21,137 nucleotides of DNA from Tubiluchus corallicola (GCA_030141605.1 JAQGDQ010001919.1:1-21137), one strand, 5' to 3'; positions 2,491 to 21,137 are shown, numbered from the stretch's first letter. Numbers and translations: made by a program. The notes: a model not told the origin generated them from the sequence alone.

Positions 2491-2905
2491 TAACTGTTAG
2501 AGTGTTTAAACGTATTAAGAATTTCCGTTCTTTTGAAAGCAGTTATTGTGTAACCTACTTTCTACTGAACTCACTATAAGAAAAAAATATCTAATCTTTT
2601 CCACCAACTAAGTTCTGTCTGCTTATGTATGGTATTAATGCGCTTGTATTAAAACACAATGGTGCTGTGAGCTTTTGCGAAATTTAGTAAGAAATACATA
2701 CGTTCGTATTCAAGACTCTACAGGGTAATTTTTTGTACTAGAAGATATAACATCTATGTATTATAGTATAGCATAGTATAACGTGTGGGTCACGTACCAG
2801 TAAGCGGTTGCCATAGTATGTGAAAGTTCCAATCATTTTCACAACAGACCATACTAAGATATGATTGTGAATGTGGCAATGTTTAGGTTACAGCTCTTGC
2901 TTTAA

Positions 2906-4204
2906 CTTTTTCAATACCATAACCATTTGCTGCATTTTGCATGGATTCATGAAGAACTGCTCTCACTAATCAGCAATTACATTTTATTTGATAATTAATC
3001 ATAAGTCATTTATTTCACATTACACATTTACAATAGTTTCATGTACAATATCTAGTGAAAGGGCCTACAATGAACATAATACAAATAGGAAATACTGCAC
3101 AGGAAAAGCCTCAAACACTGTTCACCTATACATGAAGGTAAATGTGTTGCGGGTAATCAAAAAGCAGGGCTTGTTAGATTGTCCCATGCAGTGAAAGAAA
3201 AAAAAGTAATGGAGATAATCTGAAAATTTAAAGTGAATCATGTGTATTGAAAAACAATAGTGCTTAAAATGGAATGATGTAATGAATGAAGCTCATATAT
3301 GGGATGATATAAAAGATAGAAAGACTATTATTTGTTGATAATATGCAAAATTAAGATAACTTGATTAAGCTAACACCACCGTTTTGCCGCCACTGCGAGG
3401 ACGGATAGTGATAGAAATTTTGATTACTCACTGATACTTACTTAAAATTTTATTTTTTAACATTTTTTTAAATCTAGTAATGGATCTGCGATTTTTTCCT
3501 GATTGACAAATCTCATTGCAGGCTTTTGGTCTTTGAAATATTATAAAATATATTATATACAAATATTATACAATTTTTATAGGTTTCTACTTCTCACACA
3601 ATGGATTTTCATGCTGAATTACATATGAAATGCAATTGCTTACCTTAGATAAATTAAAAATCGATTTTTGACTAAAAAATTGAAAAGGGTTTACAGCAAC
3701 TGCAGTGTTTGCACTGTAACAATGTACAGTATCACTTGTAATCAGCTAATGCAGAAAATGTCAACTATCCAGACACAACACTCTGATAAACTTTGGCCTC
3801 AAGTCTACTCTATTTTAAAGTAGAAATTCCTGTTAAGAGATGAAACAACCTTAATTTGTCCTTGTCTGATGAGCTGGTTTTTCCTGGAACTTTGTACAGT
3901 AGACAGTTCTCTTGTGCTGTAACAAGCAGGCGATCAATAATAGTGTGTACAATCACGCAAGTGTAAACCAGGCTAAGCTACTCAATAGGCTAAGTTGGAG
4001 TGACTGAAAAGGGTGTTTTTCTTAATTTTATCCAATTAAATCACTTATAAATGTTTAAACAAACAGCATGTTTGGATAGCCGAGATTCTCTTGAATAGAA
4101 CAGTACATAATTTGTAATCATTTAGTTATGTCTGTGCTCATACAGTAGCAGAAAAGTCACAAGTCTTATAAGACTTATTTTCAATGGTGCGGGTCCTGAA
4201 AGAG
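2906..4204 (-). mobile_element. TTAA-flanked non-autonomous DNA transposon (piggyBac-type MITE, ~0.72 kb), complete copy interrupted by a LINE fragment
   Basis: TTAA at 2902-2905 and 4205-4208 with degenerate TIRs (CTTTTTCAATACC / CTCTTTCAGGACC). Its reverse complement aligns by eye with 11361-11851 and 15808-16341. Confidence 0.82.
2997..3571 (-). mobile_element. 5'-truncated LINE (CR1/L2-like) 3' end nested in the TTAA MITE
   Basis: Interrupts the MITE alignment, with AATT on both sides (2993-2996, 3572-3575). The minus strand reads IIFQRPKACNEICQSGKNRRSITRFKKMLKNK, resembling the 'G.k.WN.l....S...FK..LK' ORF2 C-terminus, then a 3' UTR ending AATAAATGACTTATGATT. Confidence 0.62.
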
Positions 4205-4295
4205 TTAATAGTATTTGTTTAAAAATTGTTCTGATACTTTTTGATACAATTACATGTAAAGTTACGGATGTGCAAGTACAGTAAGATAGTATATG

Positions 4296-5260
4296 TCAAT
4301 CAATCAATCAATTTATTTCATTCCAGCAATACATATACAACACATCAACGTACAATATTATTGAAACAAAAAGAAACAGTACAGGTAAAAAAACGTTGAT
4401 GAAGTCAAATTAACCAAATAAAAGAGTTGCTGTATGACACCTTGAAAGCTTGGCTTGTTAAGGTGGCAAAAATGAGTGAATGAAAGAATGGTTACGGTTA
4501 GTAGACATGATGGAATGGAAAAAATAGTAAGATTAGGGATAGGAAGAAGGAAGGAAGGGGAGGATGAGTGAATGAAAGAATTGTTAGGGTTAGTAGACAT
4601 GATGGAATGTAAAAAATAGTAAGATTAGGGATAGGAAGAAGGAAGGGAGGGGAGGATGAGTGAATGAAAGAATGGTTAGGGTTAGTAGACATGATGGAAT
4701 GGAAAAAATAGTAAGATTAGGGATAGGAAGAAGGAAGGGAGGGGAGGATGAGTGAATGAAAGAATGATTAGGGTTAGTAGACATGATGGAATGGAAAAAA
4801 TAGTAATATTAGGGATAGGAAGAAGGAAGGGAAGGGGGATGAGTGAACGAAAGAATGGTTAGGGTTAGTAGACATGATGGAATGGAAAAAATAGTAATAT
4901 TAGGGATAGGAAGAAGGAAGGGAGGGAAGGATGAGTGAATGAAAGAGTGGTTAGGGTTAGTAGACATGATGGAATGTAAAAAATAGTAAGATTAGGGATA
5001 GGAAGAAGGAAAAGAGGAGAAGAAACGACCACAGTGTATGTTTAATTTACATAGAGCTATATTAAAATAGCATTATAATTGATTGGAGGCCATATATTGC
5101 GACTGCATTAGACATGGAACCATTAAACTTGTATTATAAGTATGAATCAAAAATGGTCCTTTTCAAATACTTTTTGAAACTATAAATAGTTTTGTGTATT
5201 TTTACTTGGGCACTTATTTTATTCCAGTTATTGGGGGCTGTGAATTTAATAAAGGCTAAT
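4296..5260 (-). mobile_element. 5'-truncated LINE (CR1/L2-like) 3' end with tandemly amplified 3' UTR
   Basis: The minus strand from about 5260 to 5134 reads LAFIKFTAPNNWNKISAQVKIHKTIYSFKKYLKRTIFDSYL* (WN...SFKK.LK ORF2 C-terminus). It ends AATAAA (4317-4312) followed by a (TTGA)4 microsatellite tail (4296-4311). Confidence 0.7.
4472..5011. repeat. 92-bp purine-rich tandem repeat, ~6 copies
   Basis: gtagacatga recurs at 4501, 4593, 4685, 4777 and onward. The unit contains GGTTAGGGTTAG and GGAAGAAGGAAGGGAGGGG. Confidence 0.95.
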
Positions 5261-5284: not shown

Positions 5285-5412
5285 TGATGGATCCGGAAAT
5301 CCTAAGATTGCTTTTGTAAAATTTGCGGAGAAGGAAACGGTCGGCATGGCTCAGCATTTGACCAACGTGGTGTTTATCGATCGAGCGCTGATCGTGCTGC
5401 CATTTTACGAGG
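5285..5412 (+). CDS. SREK1: SREK1/SRSF11-family splicing factor, coding exon 2 (RRM1 C-terminal half)
   Basis: Acceptor tttAG (5283-5284). Phase-2 join gives D-DGSGNPKIAFVKFAEKETVGMAQHLTNVVFIDRALIVLPFYE; 'AQHLTN.VFIDRALIV.P' is the family signature. Donor GT at 5413, phase 1. Confidence 0.93.
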
Positions 5413-5839: not shown

Positions 5840-6911
5840 ATAATATGTACTCAAAGGTAACAATAATTAAGACATTCACACAGGTTATACAACATTATGC
5901 AGTAGAATACAACTTGGGTTGCCCAAAATTTTTTTCTGTCTAACCTCAAAAAAATTTTGTTTCCTCCCTCCCTGCTGTTGTCTTTTGAGCTCAGGAGGTA
6001 AGACAGAAACAAGTTTTTTTTAAGCTGGTCTTATCTTATTTGTGGGATGTCTCTTATTTTGCCAGAATCGTAGAATAATGTTTCAAGACTTTGATATTTA
6101 TGTAAACTTGTGTAAATTTGTGGGGGGGGGGGGGTAGATTGACGATATTAAAGAGAAATCAAAATGAAGAATGAAATTCCAAAATCTTAAACTAATCACC
6201 CTGGGGACAGCGCTAATTAGAAGTACTTAAAGAATTTTAAAGATTTTTGAATAAATTGATAAAATGATAAAAAAATTTACATGTATGCCTCAACTTTTCC
6301 ACCAAAGTAACAGGAATGACACATGAACACGGAGACACACATGAAATTAAGCAACACGAATATTTGCTAGTTCTGAAAGTATTTGGGAAGAGGATTTTCA
6401 CTTCTAGTGTGCTGTTTAGAATAAAATACTGCAAGTTAATTTTTAAATGGATACTTTCTGCCAAATCTAACATAATGGAAAAGTTGAAAATGGGCACTGG
6501 GGACACAGGAAAAACTTTCACAGGAACTGATTTCAGCCTCAGTAGAAATGTCCAAATCACTTTTCTGGCAACAAATACAACTGGAATAAATCTCTTTCTT
6601 TGGTGTCTACCAGTCATGAGACAGTATCGCACCAGAAACTTTGTTATTTAAAAAAATTATCCTGGGACAAAATTGTACGTTCTGTGTAGAATGACCCACA
6701 TAAGGAAAATGATGTTTAGAAATTTTAAGTTATTAACTATACGACTGAAGTAATTCGTTTGTATATTTTAATATTAGTGCTTTAATGAATGTAGAGAGTT
6801 TTGTACCTGTGCTTATAACTGTAGTAGTGGCGTGATTTGATCAAAAACTTATACTGATACCTCCGTCTGCTAAGATGGTCTTTCAACGTACGTCGCTTTT
6901 TTGTGTTGCAG

Positions 6912-7021
6912 ACAAAATACCAGAGGAAGTTGAAGCACTGAAGATCCTAGCGTCGTCACCTGGTTGTGGCGTGCCGAGCTTAAACCTGGCTTCAAAATGG
7001 CCGCCTAATGTTGTAAATCAG
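6912..7021 (+). CDS. SREK1: SREK1/SRSF11-family splicing factor, coding exon 3 (inter-RRM linker)
   Basis: Acceptor ttgcAG (6910-6911). Phase-1 join gives DKIPEEVEALKILASSPGCGVPSLNLASKWPPNVVNQ ('KIPEE..AL' as in SREK1). Donor CAG|GTACTG at 7022, phase 0. Confidence 0.87.
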
Positions 7022-7337
7022 GTACTGAGTTTTATACTTGTGTAAAATGATGTTGAAGTATTAATGATCTGTGTTTCTTTCTATGATGTAGCTCTCAACT
7101 AAAACTAGATTTTTCCTGCTGATTATCATACTTTTGCAGGGATGAGAATTTTCCATGGATACGCGAAATTCCGAGTTTTTGGAAGACCAGTGGGGCCATT
7201 TTTGTAAATCGTGTAAATTCGTTGAGAAAATTTTTAAGGACCCAGTACATTATTTCACCAAGTTGTCAATGCAGTTTTGTCATTATTAGTCATAACTTAG
7301 AAATGCTTTTTAATAGAAAAGTGACACTTGGCAAGCT

Positions 7338-7572
7338 GCAAGAGGGCCAAGTAAGCTAGTGCACCATCTTTGTTGATCTAGGGCTTGCTCAAATGACAGC
7401 CATTCAGGATGAGAAATCTATAAAAATTTTATTATTAACCGGTCCCCTCTTGCAAGAGGGCCCAGTAAGCAAGTGCAGCATCTTTGCTGATCTAGGGCTT
7501 GCTCAATTGATCTCTACCAGAGAAGACGACAGCCATTCAGGACGTGAAATCTATTATTAACCGGTCCCCTCT
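7338..7572. repeat. Two-copy tandem duplication (~115 bp) with self-complementary ends
   Basis: caagagggcc.agtaagc.agtgca.catctttg.tgatctagggcttgctcaa...attattaaccggtcccctctt occurs twice. Confidence 0.8.
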
Positions 7573-7585
7573 TTTACTTTTGCAG

Positions 7586-7741
7586 GTTCAAGGCGTCGGT
7601 CCCTCACAGATGATAATCACAATTGACCCCAAACTGTCAACTCTCAACTTACCGCCCTACCCACCCCTTCCAGCTGCGATAGACAGCAACAAACTTGAGG
7701 AAGTGAGAAGGACAGTATTCGTCGGTAATCTGAATCCAAAG
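7586..7741 (+). CDS. SREK1: SREK1/SRSF11-family splicing factor, coding exon 4 (linker and start of RRM2)
   Basis: Acceptor ttttgcAG (7584-7585). VQGVGPSQMIITIDPKLSTLNLPPYPPLPAAIDSNKLEEVRRTVFVGNLNPK matches the family 'P.PPL....D..K..EIRRTVYVGNL'. Donor AAG|GTAAAT, phase 0. Confidence 0.93.
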
Positions 7742-8529: not shown

Positions 8530-8662
8530 CAGCATCGTGAGGTCAGTATCGTATCGTGAGGTTAGTATCGCGATATGTATCGTATCGTGATACGTGTCGT
8601 ATCGTGAGGTTAGTATCACGATATGTATCATATCATGACTTAGGTGTATCGTTACAGCCCTA
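8530..8662. mobile_element. hAT-type MITE terminus with subterminal (GTATC/ATCG) repeats
   Basis: Ends GTATCGTTACAGCCCTA (reverse complement TAGGGCTGTAACGATAC), preceded by clustered gtatcg/atcgtga repeats. No matching other end was found. Confidence 0.65.
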
Positions 8663-10330
8663 TGAACTATGAACTATGAATTTTATTTCACACATCAAAA
8701 ATACAATATCAAACGTATTAATAATCTTTAAATAAAATAATTTGAGTAGTGCGAGGTGAGTGTACGATCATACGGTCATTAACACACTCACCTTACTTGA
8801 ATGAAAAAATGATTATAATTATGCATGCTTCTGTAGATAACTTAATGTAAATAAGGATGAAGTAAATGATGTAATAATTTGAGTAGTGCGAGGTGAGTGT
8901 ACGACCATACGGTCATTAACACACTCACCTTACTTAAATGAAAAAATGATTATAGTTATGCATGCTTCTGTAGATAACTTAATGTAAATAAGGATGAAGT
9001 AAATGATGTAATAATTTGAGTAGTGCGAGGTGAGTGTACGACCATACGGTCATTAACACACTCACCTTACTTAAATGAAAAAATGATTATAGTTATGCAT
9101 GCTTCTGTAGATAACTTAATGTAAATAAGGATGAAGTAAATGATGTAATAATTTGAGTAGTGCGAGGTGAGTGTACGACCATACGGTCATTAACACACTC
9201 ACCTTACTTAAATGAAAAAATGATTATAGTTATGCATGCTTCTGTAGATAACTTAATGTAAATAAGGATGAAGTAAATGATGTAATAACTTGAGTAGTGC
9301 GAGGTGAGTGTACGACCATACGGTCATTAACACACTCACCTTACTTAAATGAAAAAATGATTATAGTTATGCATGCTGCTGTAGATAACTTAATGTAAAT
9401 AAGGATGAAGTAAATGATGTAATAACTTGAGTAGTGCGAGGTGAGTGTACGACCATACGGTCATTAACACACTCACCTTACTTAAATGAAAAAATGATTA
9501 AAATTATGCATGCTTCTGTAGATAACTTAATGTAAATAAGGATGAAGTAAATGATGTAATAACTTGAGTAGTGCGAGGTGAGTGTACGACCATACGGTCA
9601 TTAACACACTCACCTTACTTAGATGAAAAAATGATTATAGTTATGCATGCTTCTGTAGATAACTTAATGTAAATAAGGATGAAGTAAATGATGTAATAAT
9701 TTTAGTAGTGCAAGGTGAGTGTACGACCATACGGTCATTAACACACTCACCTTACTTAAATGAAAAAATGATTATAGTTATGCATGCTTCTGTAGATAAC
9801 TTAATGTAAATAAGGATGAAGTAAATGATGTAATAATTTGAGTAGTGCGAGGTGAGTGTACGACCATACGGTCATTAACACACTCACCTTACATAAATGA
9901 AAAAATGATTATAGTTATGCATGCTTCTGTAGATAACTTAATGTAAATAAGGATGAAGTAAATGATGTAATAATTTTAGTAGTGCGAGGTGAGTGTACGA
10001 CCATACGGTCATTAACACACTCACCTTACTTAAAGGAAAAAATGATTATAGTTATGCATGCTTCTGTAGATAACTTAATGTAAATAAGGATGAAGTAAAT
10101 GATGTAATAATAGCAATGGTATAACAGCAATAAACCTGAAAGTTGAGAAAGGAAAACATAATATGTAATTACGACTTTGAGTGAACCTTAAAGAGTGAAA
10201 AAGAATTTCAAATAGTTACGAATTTAAATTATCTAATTATCTGTCAATGTACCACTTACTTGTATTACAATGCACCATATTACTTATTTGTATATACAAT
10301 GATTTACATATACACATATATGTACCCAAA
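8663..10330 (-). mobile_element. Probable antisense LINE 3' end containing the 137-bp array
   Basis: (TATGAAC)n microsatellite tail at 8661-8680 next to a minus-strand AATAAA (8687-8682), with a stem-loop just upstream as in CR1/L2 3' UTRs. The right boundary is approximate and any coding remnant is badly decayed. Confidence 0.5.
8736..10110. repeat. 137-bp tandem repeat, 10 near-identical copies, each with a hairpin
   Basis: The unit recurs at 8744, 8881, 9018 ... 9977. Each has AGGTGAGTGT...ACACTCACCT enclosing GACC-ATAC-GGTC (GATC in the first copy). Confidence 0.96.
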
Positions 10331-11082
10331 TTTAAATGGGGGATTATTATTATTATAATTCTTTATTTAAAATTTAAAATTTGATGCATATACAAATATT
10401 TACATAATATACATTCAGTGACCGTCTATTTGCTGGGTATGGTTAAAAAACTTTGTAAATAAAATAGCTGTTATATTCGTAAGACTTTTAAATACCAATA
10501 AATCACGGATTTCGTATCTCGAAATAATATAAAAGAACAACTAAAATCAAATAGTCCAGTTTACACAAACGACCTGTATAATATAAAAGTGACAGATATA
10601 ACATAAAAATTCAATATTTTATACTAAAGTTTGTAAAAACAAATCACAAACTAACTCAGTGAAAGCATCTAGCAGGTTTTTGTCACGAGAGGTATAAATT
10701 TTACTAATGTTTTGAAATTGTAGGCTATTTGCGAGCACTAATCTTTAATTTTCGTCGACCAAAGTACAATTAAAAAGCAAATGTTCAACTGTTTGTGCTT
10801 CCTCTGAGCATATACAGGCATTTTCGTGTATGTATCCAATTTTAAAAAGAAAATCTTTAAAGTTACCTTGTCCTAGTAAAAAGTTACAAGATAGTTTTTC
10901 TAGCCTTCTGCTACCTGTGTGAAAAGGAAGGTCTAGTGGAGTTAAAAATACACTTTCAGGAAGAATAGATAATTCCTGGCATAAGTGGGGGAGAAGAGAT
11001 TAAATTTATATTTACAGCCCTACTTTATATGTATTGTAATTTTGCTTGTATGTTATAATCTGTAGTAAACTATTTTCCACAG

Positions 11083-11258
11083 GTTATGCCAAATGACGTG
11101 ATGAAATACTTCTCTAACATTGGTGAAGTGAAGTATTTACGAATGGCCGGTAGTGAGGACGCTTCCTGCAAATATGCTTACATAGAATTCACGGAGCAGA
11201 CAACCGTTCCCTTGGCTCTTCAGTATAACGGTGCCCTGTACAATGGATGGAGAATCAA
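11083..11258 (+). CDS. SREK1: SREK1/SRSF11-family splicing factor, coding exon 5 (RRM2); gene incomplete in window
   Basis: Acceptor ttccacAG (11081-11082). VMPNDVMKYFSNIGEVKYLRMAGSEDASCKYAYIEFTEQTTVPLALQYNGALYNGWRIK matches SREK1 'GEVKFVRMAGDE..P.RFAFVEF..Q.SVP.AL..NG'. Probable donor AA|GTACAG at 11259. The five exons splice in frame (719 nt). The expected 'HSNNAIVKP' and RS-domain exons were not found. Confidence 0.9.
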
Positions 11259-11360
11259 GTACAGCTTACGATTTCTTTTAAACCAGTTAAAAACAATTAT
11301 ACAGTAGCTGACATCTTGAACAAATGTGCAATGAAACCACATAATGTGAACGTCGCTTAA

Positions 11361-11851
11361 CTCCTGCAGAACCGCAAGGTTTAAAACAAGATTTTATAAG
11401 AACTATGACTTTTCTGCTACTGTTTGAGCACAGACATAACTAAATGATTACAAATTAGGTACTATTGTATTCAAGAGAAACTCGGCTATACAATCATGCT
11501 ATTTGTTTAAACATTTTTAAGTGATTTAGTTCAATAAAATTATGAAAAACGCGCCCTTGCGACATTGCAACTTAGTCCATTGAGTAGCTTAGTCTGGTGT
11601 ACACTTGCATGATCGTACACACTATTTTATTGATCGCCTGCTTGCTGTAGCCCAAGAGAACTGTCTGCTGTACAGAGTTCCAGGAAAAACCAACCGATCA
11701 GTCAAGGATAAATTAAGGTCGTCTCAAATTCCAACAGGAATTTCTGCTTAAAAATAGAATATACTTGAGGCCAAAGTATATCAGAGTGTTATGTCCGGAC
11801 AGTTGAAATTTTCTGCATAAGCCGATTTCGTACAAGTGATACTGTACATTG
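11361..11851 (+). mobile_element. Left part of the same TTAA MITE family (left TIR present, right end missing)
   Basis: TTAA 11357-11360 then CTCCTGCAGAACCGCAA. Collinear with the reverse complement of 3720-4204 (e.g. gacttttctgctactgt.tgagcacagacataactaaatgattacaaatta). Similarity stops at 11851, about 100 bp before the cGLR stop codon. Confidence 0.85.
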
Positions 11852-11947: not shown

Positions 11948-14347
11948 CTAAGATGCACTTTGCTGTTTCTTATCACTTTCTTCTATCTCATCCCAAACGA
12001 TTTTTAAATCGAAATCAACTCTCACAATATCCGCCTCGTCCAATATTCCTTCCCCCTGAGTTAGTACATGTGTTTTTAACATAGCACGGTACTTTTCAAA
12101 ATCTGGTTCCATTAGACCTTTTTTTGATGGTATGGCGCCATCAGTTAATTTCTTTTCTATAGCACGTGCTGCGTCTTCTGCCAATGTTAACAATGGAATG
12201 CCACTCATTTCTTTATGTTTTAGATCTTCTAAGATATTAACATCATTTAGCAGTGGGTGAAACATTGTGCCTTCTCGGCAACAGTCCCCAATGTACTGGA
12301 ATATAGAGACAGCTCGAGCTTTCAAGTTTTCTGTGCCCCAGTCATCTTCAGTGGTCACCACTTCATGCAAGAAGGCCACTTTTAACATGTAAGAGTCAAT
12401 GACCTTATCTGGTTGATACTTTATTGCTCCGTATAATTCTGGCAAGTTGACATCTAAAATGACCAAACTGGTGTGGTATGCTAAAGCATCAGGATTGGGA
12501 TATAAATGTATTTCTTTGTTGCAAGAATACAGGACAGGCTTTACTAGCACCTTTATGAGGATCAACACCATCTTATGGTTGCTGTCTAAGTTCTTTATAA
12601 ATTCACATTCAGCAACAGCAAATGTGGGTTCAACTTTTGTTTTTGATTCATCTGGTTTGAGCACGTAGTGATAACTGTTGACCTCTGGCCATTTATCATT
12701 GGCATTCTTTGGTACTCCCTCTTCTTCAGCACATGGTGTCACATCTACAGAGACTGCTATTTTTTTGTTTGGCAACAGAACACGTAATTTCAAACATGTA
12801 CAGACTTTATTCCATTCCACTACATGTGGAAAGCTGTTTGGCACAATTTTCTCTTTAAATTCCTCTTCTTGCAAAGCTGTCGCCACGGCTCTGCACAGGG
12901 ATTGGGAAAACATCTCCTTTAATTTTCCTAAATCTGCTGTGAAATCTCCGTGCAGTTGTACCACAACAAAAAAATCAAACTCATCTGGCTGGCCAATCTT
13001 TACTCCACAAGCCGAACTGCCAACAAGTATGGGCACAAATCTTATACGATGATTTTTGTAAACAATTCTGCTAACAGCACCTAACAATTCCTTTATATTT
13101 TTTCTAATATAGTCAAATTCTTTTACATTTGAAATTGTTCCTAATTCAGGCTCGGAAACCAAGTCCTTTAGAGACAATCCACAAATGTTTTTTGACACTG
13201 TTTCATCATCCTCTTTGCCAGAAAGCTCTGAAGACACTTCTTGCCACCTTTGAAAGTACTGATAGGAAAAAAAAAGTCCTGCAATTCGTTTGTAATTTCT
13301 GTTCAGTGCCTTTTCGTAAGCTCGTCGGATGCATATATCATAAACCGTTTCATGAGACTCATTTAACATTTCGGTCTGAACTCCTATATCAATGAGGTAT
13401 TTAACAACGTCTACACTTTGAGGTGACAAGTGAGCATCTTGACAAGCCAGATGAATTAGACTTCCTCCATTGTAAAGTTTATTTACTATCTGCCTCACTA
13501 TTTCGCCTGATTGCCTCTCTAGCATAGTTTCATATATTAATTTAACAACATCCAGTCTACCTTCTATACATGCTATGCAAAGTGGGGTCCAACCATGATT
13601 ATTTTCTGCCAGAATGTCAGAGCCCGCAAAAATCAGAAGTGCTGCACAATGAACATGTCCTTGCATTGCTGCCAAATGCAGAGCGGTATCACCTGTTGGC
13701 TCCAGGTAGAAGACATTTGCACCTTTGAGAAGCAGCAAAACAAGGGTTCCAAAGTGCCCTTTAAATGCTGCAGCATGGAGGGGTGAATCACCATCAACTG
13801 AAATGTAAGGTTCAATTTTGGCGCCATATTTAATTAACAGCTTCACTACTTCAGTGTGGCCTTCCCATGACGCAAGCTGTATAGGTCGTATTTTACACTT
13901 TTCTGGGAAGCCATCAACTTCTGCTCCGTGAACCAACAGCATTTCACAAATTTCTGTATGTCCCGCTCTAGCTGCTAATATTAAAGGCGACAATCCATTC
14001 CTTCTAGAAAGACAGTTTATGTCAGCACCCCGTTCAATGAGTTGCTGTGCAAGAAAAGTATGTCCCAAATGACATGCAGTTTCAAGGGGGGTTACTTCTG
14101 TATAACCTAGACTTGAAAGTTTTATAGTGAATCGTGATAGACTTTCCATTTCTGCTCCTCTGTTGAGAAGTTCATGAACAAGCTCATGCATGTTAAACCA
14201 CGTTGCAGTATCTAGCAGCTTGTTGAGCAACTCTGTTCCATCCACATCAAGTATAACAGCAAATTGGTAACCAATTAGTAACTTCTCGAGTACCAATTTT
14301 TGTTCGGCGTCTGACACGCTGTCAATAAGTACCTTGATTCTTTCCAT
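11948..14347 (-). CDS. Ankyrin-repeat / Mab-21 (cGAS-like receptor, cGLR) nucleotidyltransferase fusion protein, 799 aa, single coding exon
   Basis: Uninterrupted ORF with good Kozak context (GATATGG) and an in-frame stop 15 nt upstream. Ankyrin motifs TPLETAC, SPLILAA, RPIQLAS, SPLHAAA, TALHLAA, TPLCIAC, SLIHLAC (about aa 85-345). NTase motif LVG443S444-x11-E456FD458 plus third acid VSVD535V. Mab-21 C-lobe motifs TFAVAE, S652YMLKVAFLH, W...L, DC....MFHPL..VNIL. Confidence 0.92.
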   Translation of the reverse strand: MERIKVLIDSVSDAEQKLVLEKLLIGYQFAVILDVDGTELLNKLLDTATWFNMHELVHELLNRGAEMESLSRFTIKLSSLGYTEVTPLETACHLGHTFLAQQLIERGADINCLSRRNGLSPLILAARAGHTEICEMLLVHGAEVDGFPEKCKIRPIQLASWEGHTEVVKLLIKYGAKIEPYISVDGDSPLHAAAFKGHFGTLVLLLLKGANVFYLEPTGDTALHLAAMQGHVHCAALLIFAGSDILAENNHGWTPLCIACIEGRLDVVKLIYETMLERQSGEIVRQIVNKLYNGGSLIHLACQDAHLSPQSVDVVKYLIDIGVQTEMLNESHETVYDICIRRAYEKALNRNYKRIAGLFFSYQYFQRWQEVSSELSGKEDDETVSKNICGLSLKDLVSEPELGTISNVKEFDYIRKNIKELLGAVSRIVYKNHRIRFVPILVGSSACGVKIGQPDEFDFFVVVQLHGDFTADLGKLKEMFSQSLCRAVATALQEEEFKEKIVPNSFPHVVEWNKVCTCLKLRVLLPNKKIAVSVDVTPCAEEEGVPKNANDKWPEVNSYHYVLKPDESKTKVEPTFAVAECEFIKNLDSNHKMVLILIKVLVKPVLYSCNKEIHLYPNPDALAYHTSLVILDVNLPELYGAIKYQPDKVIDSYMLKVAFLHEVVTTEDDWGTENLKARAVSIFQYIGDCCREGTMFHPLLNDVNILEDLKHKEMSGIPLLTLAEDAARAIEKKLTDGAIPSKKGLMEPDFEKYRAMLKTHVLTQGEGILDEADIVRVDFDLKIVWDEIEESDKKQQSAS

Positions 14348-14732
14348 ATCAACAATGAGTCAAAAACACTTCTCGCTGTAATCTTTTAGTCAGGTAGCAG
14401 AAAAACCAAAGTGGCTAATTTATATTGTGTATCAAAAATATCATACAAACAGCATACAAAATGGTCTTATGCTTTATTTTATTTTCAAGCACGTAAACTT
14501 TTACCAGATAGTAGAACGTTCTAGCGAATAATAATTCCACAAGGTGTGATAGTAAAATTTGTGCGTATTGTACCTTTGTACCTTAATCACAGCAAACTGT
14601 TGACCAAAAAACGTACAACTTATCTTGGCAAATAAGACGCAATTTGTCTAAGCGCTGTTATCAGATGTAAATAGGGAAACATGGCGTCTTGGAGAAATTG
14701 TTGCTGTATATTTAATTCTAAACGTGGACTCT

Positions 14733-15575
14733 TGATACAGTCTTTTAGGTTCATTTTGTTTGTTTATTGGTGGCCATTACATATTTTCAAGGCTTGTTAA
14801 TGTAGTTGTACTCAAAATGAAAATATAATTATTATGGAGCTAGCAATAATTATATATGTACAAGAAAAATATACCCAGTCTATAGGTTGCTGTGACGTCA
14901 GTCTGGAATATAAGAACTACTGAGCAGCATTGCAACCCCTTTTAATATAGTTGACTTTGTATTCTAGTATGATTTTGTGTATATCCTATACTTAGGTTGC
15001 ATTAATAGCTTAATTTAGCTAATTACTTATGTTAATTGAATGAGTCATTAGTTAATTACTCATTAAACGAATTTATCTACTACAATAAAGCAAGTAGTGA
15101 CTGTACATATATGAGCCCGCACCTAGTTAGCTCTGGGAAGGGTCCCACCTCGTACCTGTCCTAGATCTCCTTTACAAGAAAGTAAGTGATTGGTCATACG
15201 CTCAACTGAACAGGCTGTCTGGCCAATAAATCGTCGTGTTAAAGGACAAGGTCATCCAGTTTTACGTGTTCGAGAAATTGAAACCAGGTTCAACCCAGTG
15301 TGTCAAACGTGCTAAGCCAGTGAAGTCATCGAATATGGCTTCCGACGAACATTTATTAATAATCGAAGTCAAGACTTAATTACTGTGGCGACAGAAAGTG
15401 ATTAAAGGGCACTGACACACCAAAGGGTTAGGTGTTCGAGCCGTGAGGCGGAAACACCAATAAACTGGCTATTATTCGTTATTTTACGTACTGCTGTAAA
15501 CGGAAATTCAGGAGATCTGATGCAGAAACAACCAGGCGATGACCAGACGTTGTATCAATGGTAGTTCCACGAGCT
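14733..15575 (+). mobile_element. Possible 5' LTR plus degenerate primer-binding site, hosting the nested solo LTR
   Basis: TGATACA (14733) ... TGTATCA (15557), with AATAAA near 15459. It is followed by A-TGGTAGTTCCACGAG, which resembles the complement of a tRNA-Gln 3' end (TGGAGGTTCCACCGAG). No target duplication and no internal ORF. Confidence 0.38.
14857..15107 (+). mobile_element. Probable solo LTR, 251 bp
   Basis: Termini TGTACA...TGTACA, 4-bp TATA on both sides (14853-14856, 15108-15111), TATAAG near 14908 and AATAAA at 15084-15089. The target duplication is low-complexity. Confidence 0.55.
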
Positions 15576-15807
15576 CCACAGGTCAGGACTCCACTGCACT
15601 CCACTAGGATTGGAGTACTTTACCACTTACGACTCCGGTACACCTGACAAGCATTGTAGAAGTGGCCACATAAGTTTCCGCCCCCTGCTCGAACTTTGGA
15701 AGAGTAACTGCTCAAGATTCCACGAAGTTCGCATAACCGTTTAGTCATGTTATTCCAGCTTCCAGAGTGATGGAGAACGTCAAATGTTGGAATCCGACAG
15801 TGTCCGA

Positions 15808-16341
15808 CTTTTCAGGCACTCCAACTTAGCCTATTGAGTAGCTTAGCCTGGTGTACACTTGCGTGATCGTACACATTATTTTATTCATTGCCTGCTTGCT
15901 AGAGCCTAAGCTGTTTCACTGTTCTACTGCTATTCCAGAAAAAAACAACTCGGCAGCCAAGAAGAAATTAAGGTCGTTTCATCTTTTAATGAGAATTTCG
16001 CCTTAAAACTAGAGTAGAGTTGAGACCAAAGTTTATCAGAGTGTTGTGTCTGGACAGTTGAAATTTTCTGCATTAGTCAATTTCACACAAGTGATACTAT
16101 ACATTGTTACAGTGCAAACACTGCAGTTGCTGCAAGCCCTTTGCAATTTATTCATCAAAAATCGATTTTTAATTTGTCTAGCGTAAGCAAATGAATTTCA
16201 TTTATAATTTTGCATGAAAATCCATTGTGTGAGGAGTAGAAACCTACAAAAATGATCAAATGTAACGTAATCGCTGCTTAGTGAGAGCAGTTTTTCATGA
16301 ACCCGTGCAAAATGCAGCAAACATTTACGGTCCTGAAGGAG
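15808..16341 (+). mobile_element. Right part of the same TTAA MITE family (right TIR present, left end missing)
   Basis: Begins cttttcaggcactccaacttagcctattgagtagc (reverse complement of about 3975-4011) and ends TTACGGTCCTGAAGGAG followed by TTAA at 16342-16345. The TIR matches the 11361 TIR at 14/17 positions. Confidence 0.85.
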
Positions 16342-16812
16342 TTAATGCCCAAATTTTCAGCAAAACAAAATATCTGTATTTACACAGACCTGTGCATATT
16401 ATTGCACTCATCAAACTACTATCGTTTTTGCAGTTTCCAAGCGGCTAAACTAAATTTATTATCATTTTTAAGCAAGTTACTTATTTGAGTGTTTCTACAG
16501 AAAGGCCGGCCAAAAGAAATTTGGTTCCGTCTTACCTCGTGAGCACAAAACATGTCAGTAGGGAGGGAGAAGAATTTTTTTCAAGGCTTTGTGTATATTT
16601 AAAGCTGGACCGTGTTATGTTTAAATTCACTTTAAATCAAAGTTTGTTTATTTCCCACTGGTTAGCAGTAATGTTTTAAATTTTTTCAATGCACATTTCT
16701 TCACTCTTTGTCTTTTAGTTTCGCATTGCTAAATTATCGCATAATTATCGATTATTGTATAGTCTCTTGTTTGTATGATGAAACGTGTATGATCTGGTAA
16801 TAATGGTATAAG

Positions 16813-17855
16813 TGGCAACACTACTCGGCTGTTAATACACCGATTTGGTGGAAAATTCAACACTTTTTTACCTCCAGTATAATGAGAATCATACAAAATG
16901 GCAACACTACTCGGCTGCTAATACACTGATTTGGTGGAAAATTCAACACTTTTTAGCCTCCAGTATCATGAGAATCATACAAAATGGCAACACTACTCGG
17001 CTGTTAATACACTGATTTGGTGGAAAATTCAACACTTTTTTACCTCCAGTATCATGAGAATCATACAAAATGGCAACACTACTCGGCTGTTAATACACTG
17101 ATTTGGTGGAAAATTCAACACTTTTTTACCTCCAGTATCATGAGAATCATGCAAAATGGCAACACTACTCGGCTGTTAATACACTGATTTGGTGGAAAAT
17201 TCAACACTTTTTAGCCTCCAGTATCATGAGAATCATGCAAAATGGCAACACTACTCGGCTGTTAATACACTGATTTGGTGGAAAATTCAACACTTTTTTA
17301 CCTCCAGTATCATGAGAATCATGCAAAATGGCAACACTACTCGGTTGCTAATACACTGATTTGGTGGAAAATTCAACACTTTTTAGCCTCCAGTATCATG
17401 AGAATCATGCAAAATGGCAACACTACTCGGCTGTTAATACACTGATTTGGTGGAAAATTCAACACTTTTTTACCTCCAGTATCATGAGAATCATACAAAA
17501 TGGCAACACTACTCGGCTGTTAATACACTGATTTGGTGGAAAATTCAACACTTTTTTACCTCCAGTATCATGAGAATCATGCAAAATGGCAACACTACTC
17601 GGCTGTTAATACACTGATTTGGTGGAAAATTCAACACTTTTTAGCCTCCAGTATCATGAGAATCATGCAAAATGGCAACACTACTCGGCTGTTAATACAC
17701 TGATTTGGTGGAAAATTCAACACTTTTTTACCTCCAGTATCATGAGAATCATGCAAAGTGGCAACACTACTCGGCTGGTAATACACTGATTTGGTGGAAA
17801 ATTCAACACTTTTTAGCCTCCGATACAATGAACGTCATACAAAATGGCAACCCTG
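16813..17855. repeat. 86-bp tandem repeat, 12 copies, with 5-unit higher-order structure
   Basis: tggcaac recurs at 16813, 16899, 16985 ... 17759; the array ends in TGGCAACCCTG (17845-17855). Confidence 0.95.
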
Positions 17856-18130
17856 GCCGAGAGTTAGCCGCAAAAAAACATGGCCGCGCCCTGCGTTCAT
17901 GATGTTATAACGACGAAATAATGATGTTATGATAATTATTGCGTTTTATGTTTTAAATTAAAAAATACGCTTTTATATGACTGAGTCAAGCAAGTATATG
18001 ATTATACGAAAAATATATATATAATTTCCACCGTGTGCGCGATAAAAATGTATTACTTAGGCGATTAGACGGAAACACAGGTATTTTTATTGTCTGCCAA
18101 AAGTAAAAGTGTGTATTTTATGCATCGTGT

Positions 18131-21100
18131 CTTATGCTACGCTTGTGTTTCATTTGCTACGCTTGTGTTTCTTTTGCTACGCTTGTGTTTCTTTTGCTAC
18201 GCTTGTGTTTCTTTTGCTACGCTTGTGTTTCTTATGCTGCGCTTGTGTTTCTTTTGCTACGCTTGTGTTTCTTTTGCTACGCTTGTGTTTCTTATGCTAC
18301 GCTTGTGTTTCTTATGCTACGCTTGTGTTTTTATGCTAAGCCTGTGTTTCTTATGCTACACTTGTGTTTCTTTTGCTACGCTTGTGTTTCTTATGCTACA
18401 CTTGTGTTTCTTATGCTACGCTTGTGTTTCTTATGCTACGCTTGTGTTTCTTATGCTACGCTTGTGTTTCTTTTGCTACGCTTGTGTTTCTTATGCTACG
18501 CTTGTGTTTCTTTTGCTACGCTTGTGTTTCTTATGCTACGCTTGTGTTTCTTATGCTACGCTTGTGTTTCTTATGCTACGCTTGTGTTTCTTATGCTACG
18601 CTCGTGTTTCTTATGCTACGCTTGAGTTTCTTATGCTATGCTTGTGTTTCTTTTGCTACGCTTGTGTTTCTTATGCTACGCTTGTGTTTCTTATGCTACA
18701 CTTGTGTTTCTTTTGCTACGCTTGTGTTTCTTTTGCTACGCTTGTGTTTCTTATGCTACGCTTGTGTTTCTTATGCTACGCTTGTGTTTCTTATGCTACG
18801 CGTGTGTTTTTTTTATGCTGCACTTGTGTTTCTTATGCTGCACTTGTGTTTTTTATGCTACACTTGTGTTTTTTATGCTACACTTGTGTTTCTTATGCTA
18901 CACTTGTGTTTCTTTTGCTACGCTTGTGTTTCTTATGCTACGCTTGTGTTTCTTATGCTACACTTGTGTTTCTTATGCTACGCTTGTGTTTCTTATGCTA
19001 CGCTTGTGTTTCTTATTGCTACACTTGTGTTTCTTATGCTACACTTGTGTTTCTTTTGCTACGCTTGTGTTTCTTATGCTACGCTTGTGTTTCTTATGCT
19101 ACACTTGTGTTTCTTTTGCTACGCTTGTGTTTCTTATGCTGCACTTGTGTTTCTTATGCTACACTTGTGTTTCTTATGCTACACTTGTGTTTCTTATGCT
19201 ACGCTTGTGTTTCTTATGCTACGCTTGTGTTTCTTATGCTACACTTGTGTTTCTTATGCTACGCTTGTGTTTCTTATGCTACGCTTGTGTTTCTTATGCT
19301 ACGCTTGTGTTTCTTATGCTACGCTTGTGTTTCTTATGCTACGCTTGTGTTTCTTATGCTACGCTTGTGTTTCTTATGCTACGCTTGTGTTTCTTATGCT
19401 ACACTTGTGTTTCTTATGCTAAGCTTGTGTTTCTTATGCTACGCTTGTGTTTCTTATGCTACGCTTGTGTTTCTTATGCTACGCTTGTGTTTCTTATGCT
19501 ACGCTTGTGTTTCTTATGCTACCTTTGTGTTTTTTATGCTACGCTTGTGTTTCTTATGCTACGCTTGTGTTTCTTATGCTACACTTGTGTTTCTTATGCT
19601 ACGCTTGTGTTTCTTATGCTACGCTTGTGTTTTTATGCTACACTTGTGTTTCTTATGCTACACTTGTGTTTCTTATGCTACGCTTGTGTTTCTTATGCTA
19701 CGCTTGTGTTTCTTATGCTGCACTTGTGTTTTTATGCTACACTTGTGTTTCTTATGCTGCACTTGTGTTTTTTATGCTGCACTTGTGTTTCTTATGCTAC
19801 ACTAGTGTTTTTATGCTACACTTGTGTTTCTTATGCTACGCTTGTGTTTTTTATGCTACGCTTGTGTTTTTTATGCTATGCTTGTGTTTTTTATGCTACG
19901 CTTGTGTTTTTTACGCTACACTTGTGTTTTTTATGCTACACTTGTGTTTCTTATGCTACGCTTGTGTTTTTTATGCTACGCTTGTGTTTTTTATGCTACG
20001 CTTGTGTTTCTTATGCTACGCTTGTGTTTCTTATGCTACGCGTGTGTTTTTTTTATGCTGCACTTGTGTTTTTTATGCTGCACTTGTGTTTTTTATGCTA
20101 CACTTGTGTTTTTTATGCTACACTTGTGTTTCTTATGCTACGCTTGTGTTTCTTTTGCTACGCTTGTGTTTCTTATGCTACGCTTGTGTTTCTTATGCTA
20201 CGCTTGTGTTTCTTATGCTACACTTGTGTTTCTTATGCTACGCTTGTGTTTCTTATGCTACACTTGTGTTTTTTATGCTACACTTGTGTTTCTTATGCTA
20301 CGCTTGTGTTTCTTATGCTACGCTTGTGTTTCTTATGCTACGCTTGTGTTTCTTATGCTACACTTGTGTTTCTTATGCTAAGCTTGTGTTTCTTATGCTA
20401 CGCTTGTGTTTCTTATGCTACGCTTGTGTTTCTTATGCTGCGCTTGTGTTTCTTATGCTGCGCCTGTGTTTTTTATGCTGCGCTTGTGTTTTTTATACAC
20501 TTGTGTTTCTTATGCTACGCTTGTGTTTCTTATGCTACGCTTGTGTTTCTTATGCTACGCGTGTGTTTTTTTTATGCTGCACTTGTGTTTTTTATGCTGC
20601 ACTTGTGTTTTTTATGCTACACTTGTGTTTTTATGCTACACTTATGTTTCTTATGCTACACTTGTGTTTCTTATGCTGCACTTGTGTTTCTTATGCTACA
20701 TTTGTGTTCCTTGTGCTACGCTTGTGTTTTTTATGCTACACTTCTGTTTTTTATGCTACACTTGTGTTTCTTATGCTACACTTGTGTTTCTTATGCTACG
20801 CTTGTGTTTCTTATGCTACGCTTGTGTTTCTTATGCTACACTTGTGTTTCTTATGCTACACTTGTGTTTTTACGCTACACTTGTGTTTTTTATGCTTCAC
20901 TTGTGTTTCTCATGCTACGCTTGTGTTTCTTATGCTACGCTTGTGTTTCTTATGCTACGCTTGTGTTTCTTATGCTACGCTTGTGTTTCTTATGCTACAC
21001 TTGTGTTTCTTATGCTACACTTGTGTTTTTTATGCTACACTTGTGTTTCTTATGCTACACTTGTGTTTCTTATGCTACGCTTGTGTTTCTTATGCTACGC

Positions 21101-21137
21101 TTGTGTTTCTTATGCTACACTTGTGTTTCTTATGCTA
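18131..21137. repeat. 20-bp satellite, ~150 copies, runs off the window end
   Basis: Unit CTTATGCTACGCTTGTGTTT with minor variants (acac/acgc, ttat/tttt, 19-bp deletion units). Confidence 0.98.

Follow-up and report, generated by a model that had tools for sequence, protein, structure and literature searches.

An intact ankyrin-fused cGLR gene between TTAA transposon ends in Tubiluchus corallicola, likely present in many copies

The window analysed here, a whole stretch of 21,137 nt from Tubiluchus corallicola (GCA_030141605.1, JAQGDQ010001919.1), is AT-rich animal DNA and carries an intact gene for an ankyrin-fused cGLR (ANK-cGLR) between two TTAA-type transposon ends. The explanation we favour, with a probability of about 0.5, is that the gene exists in 10-30 copies that spread with the transposon, and that its product is likely a synthase of a cyclic dinucleotide for STING, switched on when a ligand other than nucleic acid, e.g. 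a protein, is bound by the ankyrin array. Since transposon flanks are combined with a gene depth 20-33 times that of the flanking DNA, a transposon has likely helped to multiply a family of immune sensors here. Both the activators of acidic domain-fused enzymes and the route by which genes reach tens to hundreds of copies are open questions for animal cGLRs (PMC9980059), and a TTAA-flanked unit would be a concrete and checkable route for such expansion. Features are collected in Table 1.

Table 1. Features of the ANK-cGLR gene, the TTAA-flanked unit and the adjoining host DNA (positions counted from the first base of the window).
Feature	Position	Strand	Remarks
Third, gene-free MITE copy	2902..4208	(-)	TTAA at both ends; 575-bp insertion (2997-3572); empty-element reference
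Host fifth exon	11083..11258	(+)	Single-copy; donor opens the intron holding the element; X1 contig 10856-11330, depth 163.7
Left TTAA (11357-11360) and 17-bp TIR	11357..11377	(+)	
Left MITE piece	11361..11851	(+)	About positions 1-490 of a ~720-bp element; 84% to third copy
ANK-cGLR ORF (P0001)	11948..14347	(-)	799 aa; single coding exon; frame without stop
cGLR domain (cGAS/Mab-21 fold), residues 389-738	12134..13183	(-)	Structural alignment to 8gjw and profile search
S652-Y653-x-x-K656	12380..12394	(-)	Aligned to cGAS SYHVK
D535, third catalytic acid	12743..12745	(-)	Invariant in 11/11
WNKVC clade signature, residues 512-516	12800..12814	(-)	Invariant in 11/11
E456-F-D458, metal-binding acids	12974..12982	(-)	Invariant in 11/11
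G443-S444	13016..13021	(-)	Invariant in 11/11
Linker helix, residues 348-366	13250..13306	(-)	Conserved across clade (N..Y+..AG.h)
Ankyrin array, residues 38-345	13313..14236	(-)	Six canonical repeats plus capping/degenerate pairs
Unclassified high-copy repeat	15050..15807		Between gene upstream region and right MITE piece; limits approximate; X1 depth 26,000-47,000
Right MITE piece	15808..16341	(+)	About positions 197-720
Right TIR and TTAA (16342-16345)	16325..16345	(-)	14/17 bases match left TIR

The reading frame of the gene (product P0001) has an in-frame stop four codons 5′ of its ATG. There are six canonical ankyrin motifs, with first residues 86, 120, 154, 188, 221 and 254, and in the AlphaFold2 model residues 38-62, 297-320 and 335-365 form further helix pairs of capping or degenerate type, which makes the seven to eight repeats of the original prediction, itself drawn from the sequence alone, a fair count. 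In a Pfam scan Ank matched six stretches (E 4e-40) and Mab-21_C matched residues 649-714 (E 5e-7; 30.1 bits vs a cut-off of 24.1), and PF03281 (Mab-21) gave no match at E ≤ 0.1; two of the three profiles proposed beforehand were thus recovered and the third was not. Of the 13 relatives, 7 do match PF03281 (E ≤ 0.05). Rfam gave no match. A candidate TTACAG acceptor with a branch-point-like CTGAC/CTAA is located at 14375-14400 (-), 28 bases 5′ of the ATG, and suggests a 5′ UTR intron with a non-coding first exon. A CRE-like palindrome at 14893 was discarded as lying within chance (20/100 shuffles).

The AlphaFold2 model, computed from an 11-row alignment, reached a pLDDT of 84.6 and a pTM of 0.79, and its residues 389-738 superposed on oyster Cv-cGLR1 (8gjw) with Z 21.3 and an rmsd of 3.0 Å over 291 residues at 16% identity. 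This entry ranked 31st among the structural matches to the model, below ankyrin matches to the N-terminal half, and Foldseek with the full model returned ankyrin proteins only among the matches listed. A profile of the C-terminal domain matched 42 PDB sequences at E ≤ 1 (best 1.5e-16), all of them cGAS, cGLR or Mab-21, and covered both lobes of cGAS and of Sp-cGLR1. When the PDB was searched with a single sequence, Sp-cGLR1 was the one match (E 0.18), and a single-sequence fold of the domain had a pLDDT of 32. The cGLR identity and fold claimed by the original prediction are supported by the profile matches and the superposition, and the five catalytic residues that it named are found at the claimed positions with the triad intact.

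The active-site motif GS-x8-20-[DE]h[DE]h-x50-90-h[DE]h is represented by G443-S444, 11 residues, E456-F-D458-F, 74 residues and V534-D535-V536. The written cGLR motif has [QT] before GS, where P0001 has V442; as Priapulus members with LVGS stand in the curated list of PMC9980059, its authors did not apply [QT] strictly. Apart from that letter, P0001 agrees with the three cGLR criteria of Li et al. 2023 (PMC9980059). Invariant in all 11 aligned sequences, at ~28% identity, are G443, S444, K450, E456, D458, W512-N-K-V-C516, D535, K599, D651-S-Y653 and K656.

A homologue search with residues 383-799 against 1.84 billion representatives gave 13 hits, ten full-length proteins and three fragments; after P0001 and the Priapulus protein P0015 were added, all 12 full-length members carried N-terminal ankyrin repeats. 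Four of nine hits looked up are Priapulus caudatus RefSeq proteins, and an Atlas query with the Priapulus homologue P0007 gave Mab-21/cGLR clusters. One relative, P0002, is 52% identical to P0001, and this identity together with the invariant residues shows a catalytic core clearly constrained over deep time. Relatives were found in 0/126 viral contig stretches and 0/55 prokaryotic genomes. A quick tree built from 40 domains separated the 12 WNKVC rows from the rest (SH-aLRT 99) and placed them within a larger set of 28 rows (98); ankyrin repeats occurred in 5/5 metagenome rows scanned on the 28-row side and 0/3 on the other side. One origin of ANK-cGLRs is hinted at by this tree, and only hinted at because it was midpoint-rooted, had long branches and left out one truncated locus. 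WNKVC was absent from all 26 metagenome loci. Among these loci, single-frame ANK-cGLR genes of 879-1,145 codons are present at L003:290-3010, L010:151-2787, L020:1431-4112, L022:2156-5371 and L025:258-3692; they fall outside the WNKVC clade, and their enzyme domains are acidic (pI 4.9-5.9).

ANK-fused cGLRs have been described by Li et al. 2023 (PMC9980059), whose Table S1 includes Priapulus caudatus XP_014668761.1 (P0007) and XP_014666123.1 (P0015); in the available part of Table S3, the screened set, there is no Priapulus entry and no 'ankyrin' description. The same source reports five STING genes in Priapulus. P0001 is a new member of this catalogued class, and the fused architecture, which the original prediction had already called known, is not new; the transposon context and a hint of binding-face variation go beyond it. 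Ankyrin is not mentioned in the available part of PMC10732462, and a search of titles and abstract openings, with subscription journals outside its coverage, found no publication on a transposon-borne cGLR or an assayed ANK-cGLR. The two Priapulus proteins, at ~28-30% identity, share with P0001 the architecture, the WNKVC clade and the intact triad, whereas P0001 differs from them in a much shorter loop after D458 (20 residues vs 30-55 in relatives), a basic spine helix and a gene that sits in a transposon-flanked multi-copy unit. Cv-cGLR1 (8GJW), Sp-cGLR1 (8GJY) and cGAS have fold and active site in common with P0001, but they are basic, activated by nucleic acid and without an ankyrin array. 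The acidic, auto-active Pd-cGLR and Sp-cGLR2 resemble it in low pI and in an activator that is probably not nucleic acid. By eye, Pd-cGLR (432 aa) is like the WNKVC clade around the first and third acids, but it has no N-terminal extension, and WNKVC is absent from the part of its sequence compared.

Catalysis by active sites of this kind follows from established CD-NTase chemistry. Based on this chemistry and on the invariant residues, we propose that P0001 is probably an active enzyme. It is very unlikely that P0001 instead acts as a non-catalytic adaptor by protein contact, or as an enzyme that modifies a protein brought to it by the ankyrin array. Shrimp Mab21 proteins do signal through IKKe, with cGAMP not detected in that study (PMC12928593), and the WNKVC motif stands where several other cGLRs have a GPA.TL strand; the short loop after D458 would also fit an adaptor. 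However, every metal- and triphosphate-binding residue is invariant at ~28% identity, which argues for catalysis.

The trigger of the enzyme is a separate matter. Nucleic-acid-sensing cGLRs have a pI above 8.5 and a long basic surface for binding, and acidic ones were proposed to sense other ligands (PMC9980059). With a pI of 5.8-6.0 for the cGLR domain and 5.4 for the whole protein, a non-nucleic-acid trigger is plausible for P0001, and its basic spine helix counts against this: residues 408-436 contain 8 K/R vs 3 D/E (net +5). This helix is one basis for the opposing proposal, which we consider improbable, that dsRNA or dsDNA binds along the spine, with the role of the ankyrin array limited to localising or scaffolding the enzyme. 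Among 15 active cGLRs, nine are stimulated by dsRNA or dsDNA (PMC9980059), K592 is basic in 9/11 clade members, and the domain pI exceeds 8 in 4/11; on the other hand it is below 7 in the other 7/11, P0001 included, and the spine helix is neutral or acidic in all ten relatives, P0001 alone being basic. Three residues ahead of K599, 10/11 clade members have a hydrophobic residue or Ala, and the dsRNA-sensing Sp-cGLR1 has Arg. The earlier suggestion of a trigger other than dsDNA or dsRNA is thus helped by the acidic domain and by the variable ankyrin codons described below, and weakened by the charge of the spine.

In our preferred reading the concave face of the ankyrin array may read the ligand and be coupled to the enzyme through the conserved helix 348-366, to which we give slightly less than even odds, and the same holds for ankyrin-gated sensing of a non-nucleic-acid ligand as a whole. 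The pTM of the two-domain chain together with the conserved helix suggests a fixed arrangement with the array packed on the enzyme; a complex prediction for the separate ankyrin and cGLR domains scored 0.01 and is uninformative on this packing. As the original prediction suggested, the array may serve in sensing or in autoinhibition.

The gene lies inside a 5-kb TTAA-flanked unit whose ends are two pieces of one MITE family. The TIR pattern matched three times in the window and never in 100 shuffles. Left and right arms overlap by 289 bp at 80% identity and so come from two different MITE copies. At the right end, 156 X1 contigs run into unlike flanks at 16345 and 45 at 16346, and these ~200 diverging contigs mark a real element end. 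As in piggyBac elements, the target duplication is TTAA, which the third copy likewise has at each end, and the TIR length falls within 12-19 bp; the terminal motif is CTCC / CTCT vs the CC[C/T]T given in PMC2872659, and for this difference we call the unit piggyBac-like and do not file it as a piggyBac member. Coral CMITE, a piggyBac/TTAA MITE (PMC2872659), shares with the MITE here the TTAA duplication, a short TIR and the lack of coding capacity; unlike such MITEs, the element here begins with CTCC, is ~720 bp long and carries a gene. No transposase was seen in the window. Helitron and LTR readings were rejected, because inverted repeats bordered by TTAA form the ends and the direct repeats belong to the interior of the MITE. 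MITE pieces are common locally (three in 18 kb). Over the pieces of the third copy, X1 depth is above 100,000, which implies hundreds of MITE copies.

Pack-TIRs consist of host sequence enclosed by TIRs and a target duplication; the locus has this arrangement and looks like a multi-copy Pack-TIR. Such cases are rare in animals (four, or 1.4%; median captured size 224 bp; PMC8277862), and 'piggyBac' does not occur in the main text of that paper. Among the animal Pack-TIRs reported there, the locus is nearest to Drosophila Ssk-FB4. However, Ssk-FB4 is a TcMariner with four copies, whereas the ends here are TTAA-type and derive from two different MITE copies, the depth suggests 10-30 copies, and the cargo is a whole pattern-recognition enzyme gene.

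Copy number was judged from two DNA runs, X1 and X3, which belong to two independent studies. The median depth of the gene over 24 bins was 5,093 in X1 vs 148-253 for single-copy pieces (20-27 times), and 99.7 in X3 vs 3.0-3.3 (33 times). Just outside the TTAA sites depth was single-copy (163.7 and 148.1 in X1, 3.3 in X3), as on host exon 4 (185.9 in X1, 3.0 in X3). Summed contig depth is no copy number, being inflated by overlapping short contigs, and for this reason we give a range: the gene is likely present in 10-30 copies. Over 3.1 kb X1 has 1,118 contigs, with 250 at ≥99% identity, 245 at 95-99%, 333 at 90-95% and 290 below 90%. One X3 contig (11719-11987) crosses the junction between MITE and gene at 11851 with a depth of 46.7, i.e. 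10-15 times single copy. The multi-copy state thus applies to the gene and the left junction, the latter by one contig of one run. Moreover, X3 depth falls to 0-22 over 14385-14900; given this drop and the single shared junction, the 5-kb unit may not move as a whole.

The mechanism we propose has two steps, which together appear somewhat probable: two MITE copies would have come to flank the parent gene, with their outer ends forming a composite unit, and a piggyBac-like transposase acting in trans would have moved this unit. Somewhat unlikely, in our estimate, is an ordinary family expansion by tandem or segmental duplication, MITE fragment included, in which recombination or gap repair placed the present copy in a resident MITE and no transposase ever moved the gene. 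The two MITE pieces overlap at only 80% identity, as a crossover between two MITE copies would leave them, gap filling without transposition is the origin of most animal Pack-TIRs (PMC8277862), and the multi-copy junction is seen on the left side only. Yet gap-filled Pack-TIRs are mostly single-copy (PMC8277862) and the left junction here is multi-copy; in addition, single-copy host DNA resumes just beyond each TTAA.

Variation among copies was tallied from 40 of the 293 variant rows, ten of which represent one X3 contig with six further differences. These rows hold at least 35 substitutions in the ORF, 6 synonymous, 28 non-synonymous and 1 apparent stop. The neutral expectation is 22-28% synonymous, and 6/35 among the listed rows is indistinguishable from it; the listed substitutions do not show purifying selection among copies. 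A dN/dS near one, which the original prediction had named, together with a lack of transcription, as evidence against itself, is therefore not cleanly excluded by these counts. No variant touches the catalytic codons in the 40 of 293 rows listed. Among the listed indels in the ORF are four insertions of 3 bases each and two insertion pairs (1+5 and 4+2 bases); insertions at 13698-13702 do not all resolve to triplets, gapped contigs in the ORF have 2, 3, 6, 6 and 9 gap letters, and the single 4-base deletion listed is 5′ of the ATG.

In the six canonical repeats the variable ankyrin codons are concentrated at the binding-face positions 2, 3, 5, 13, 14 and 33, those randomised in DARPins. Six of the 11 listed fall there (p=0.007), namely R127, D187, F195, K196, P217 and T218, most of them from one contig, and purifying selection on the ankyrin framework would produce some enrichment at variable positions anyway. 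Near-identical paralogues that differ on the ankyrin face would allow ligand specificity to be mapped by swaps.

These data also bear on whether the copies are passengers, with a functional parent elsewhere and P0001 and most other copies being neutral transposon cargo that is open only because it is young. We regard this as unlikely. It agrees with the share of synonymous changes, with the apparent stop at R127 (read as a single change), which accounts for 40% of X1 depth at that site, and with the position of the gene inside a host intron, antisense to the host and downstream of the exon-5 donor. But the listed in-ORF indels are mostly frame-keeping even though 290/1,118 X1 contigs are less than 90% alike, changes cluster on the ankyrin binding face, and a good candidate splice acceptor precedes the ATG. 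Under the preferred reading, expression of the P0001 copy itself would have an even chance. Run X6 (14 million letters), presumably an RNA run, covers host exon 2 with contigs and has none on the cGLR gene; it is uninformative on expression. A far-reaching version of the preferred reading seems distinctly improbable to us: a DNA transposon would have captured a whole cGLR gene and raised it to tens of copies; their ankyrin faces would diversify in the manner of NLR or VLR repeats, so that the copies form a bank of protein-sensing cyclic-dinucleotide synthases.

The host gene has exons on the (+) strand at 1451-1599, 5285-5412, 6912-7021 and 7586-7741 in addition to the fifth, with GT-AG splicing and 239 open codons, and one X6 contig links sequence from exon 1 with exon 2. 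Its product is a two-RRM SR-type splicing factor, presumably SREK1/SRSF11-like by its motifs. The gene continues beyond the window, and no host exon after exon 5 was found within it. Local duplications occupy 7337-7573, just upstream of host exon 4, and tandem arrays in the host introns span 390-1355, 4375-5115, 8599-10268 and 16724-17969 (units of 26, 92, 137 and 86 bases). A 26-bp inverted-repeat pair is present at 2064-2492, and a dispersed 58-bp inverted pair at 5964-6021 and 16512-16569. The end of the window (18061-21137) is an A/T-skewed short tandem repeat with spurious ORFs of up to 837 codons.
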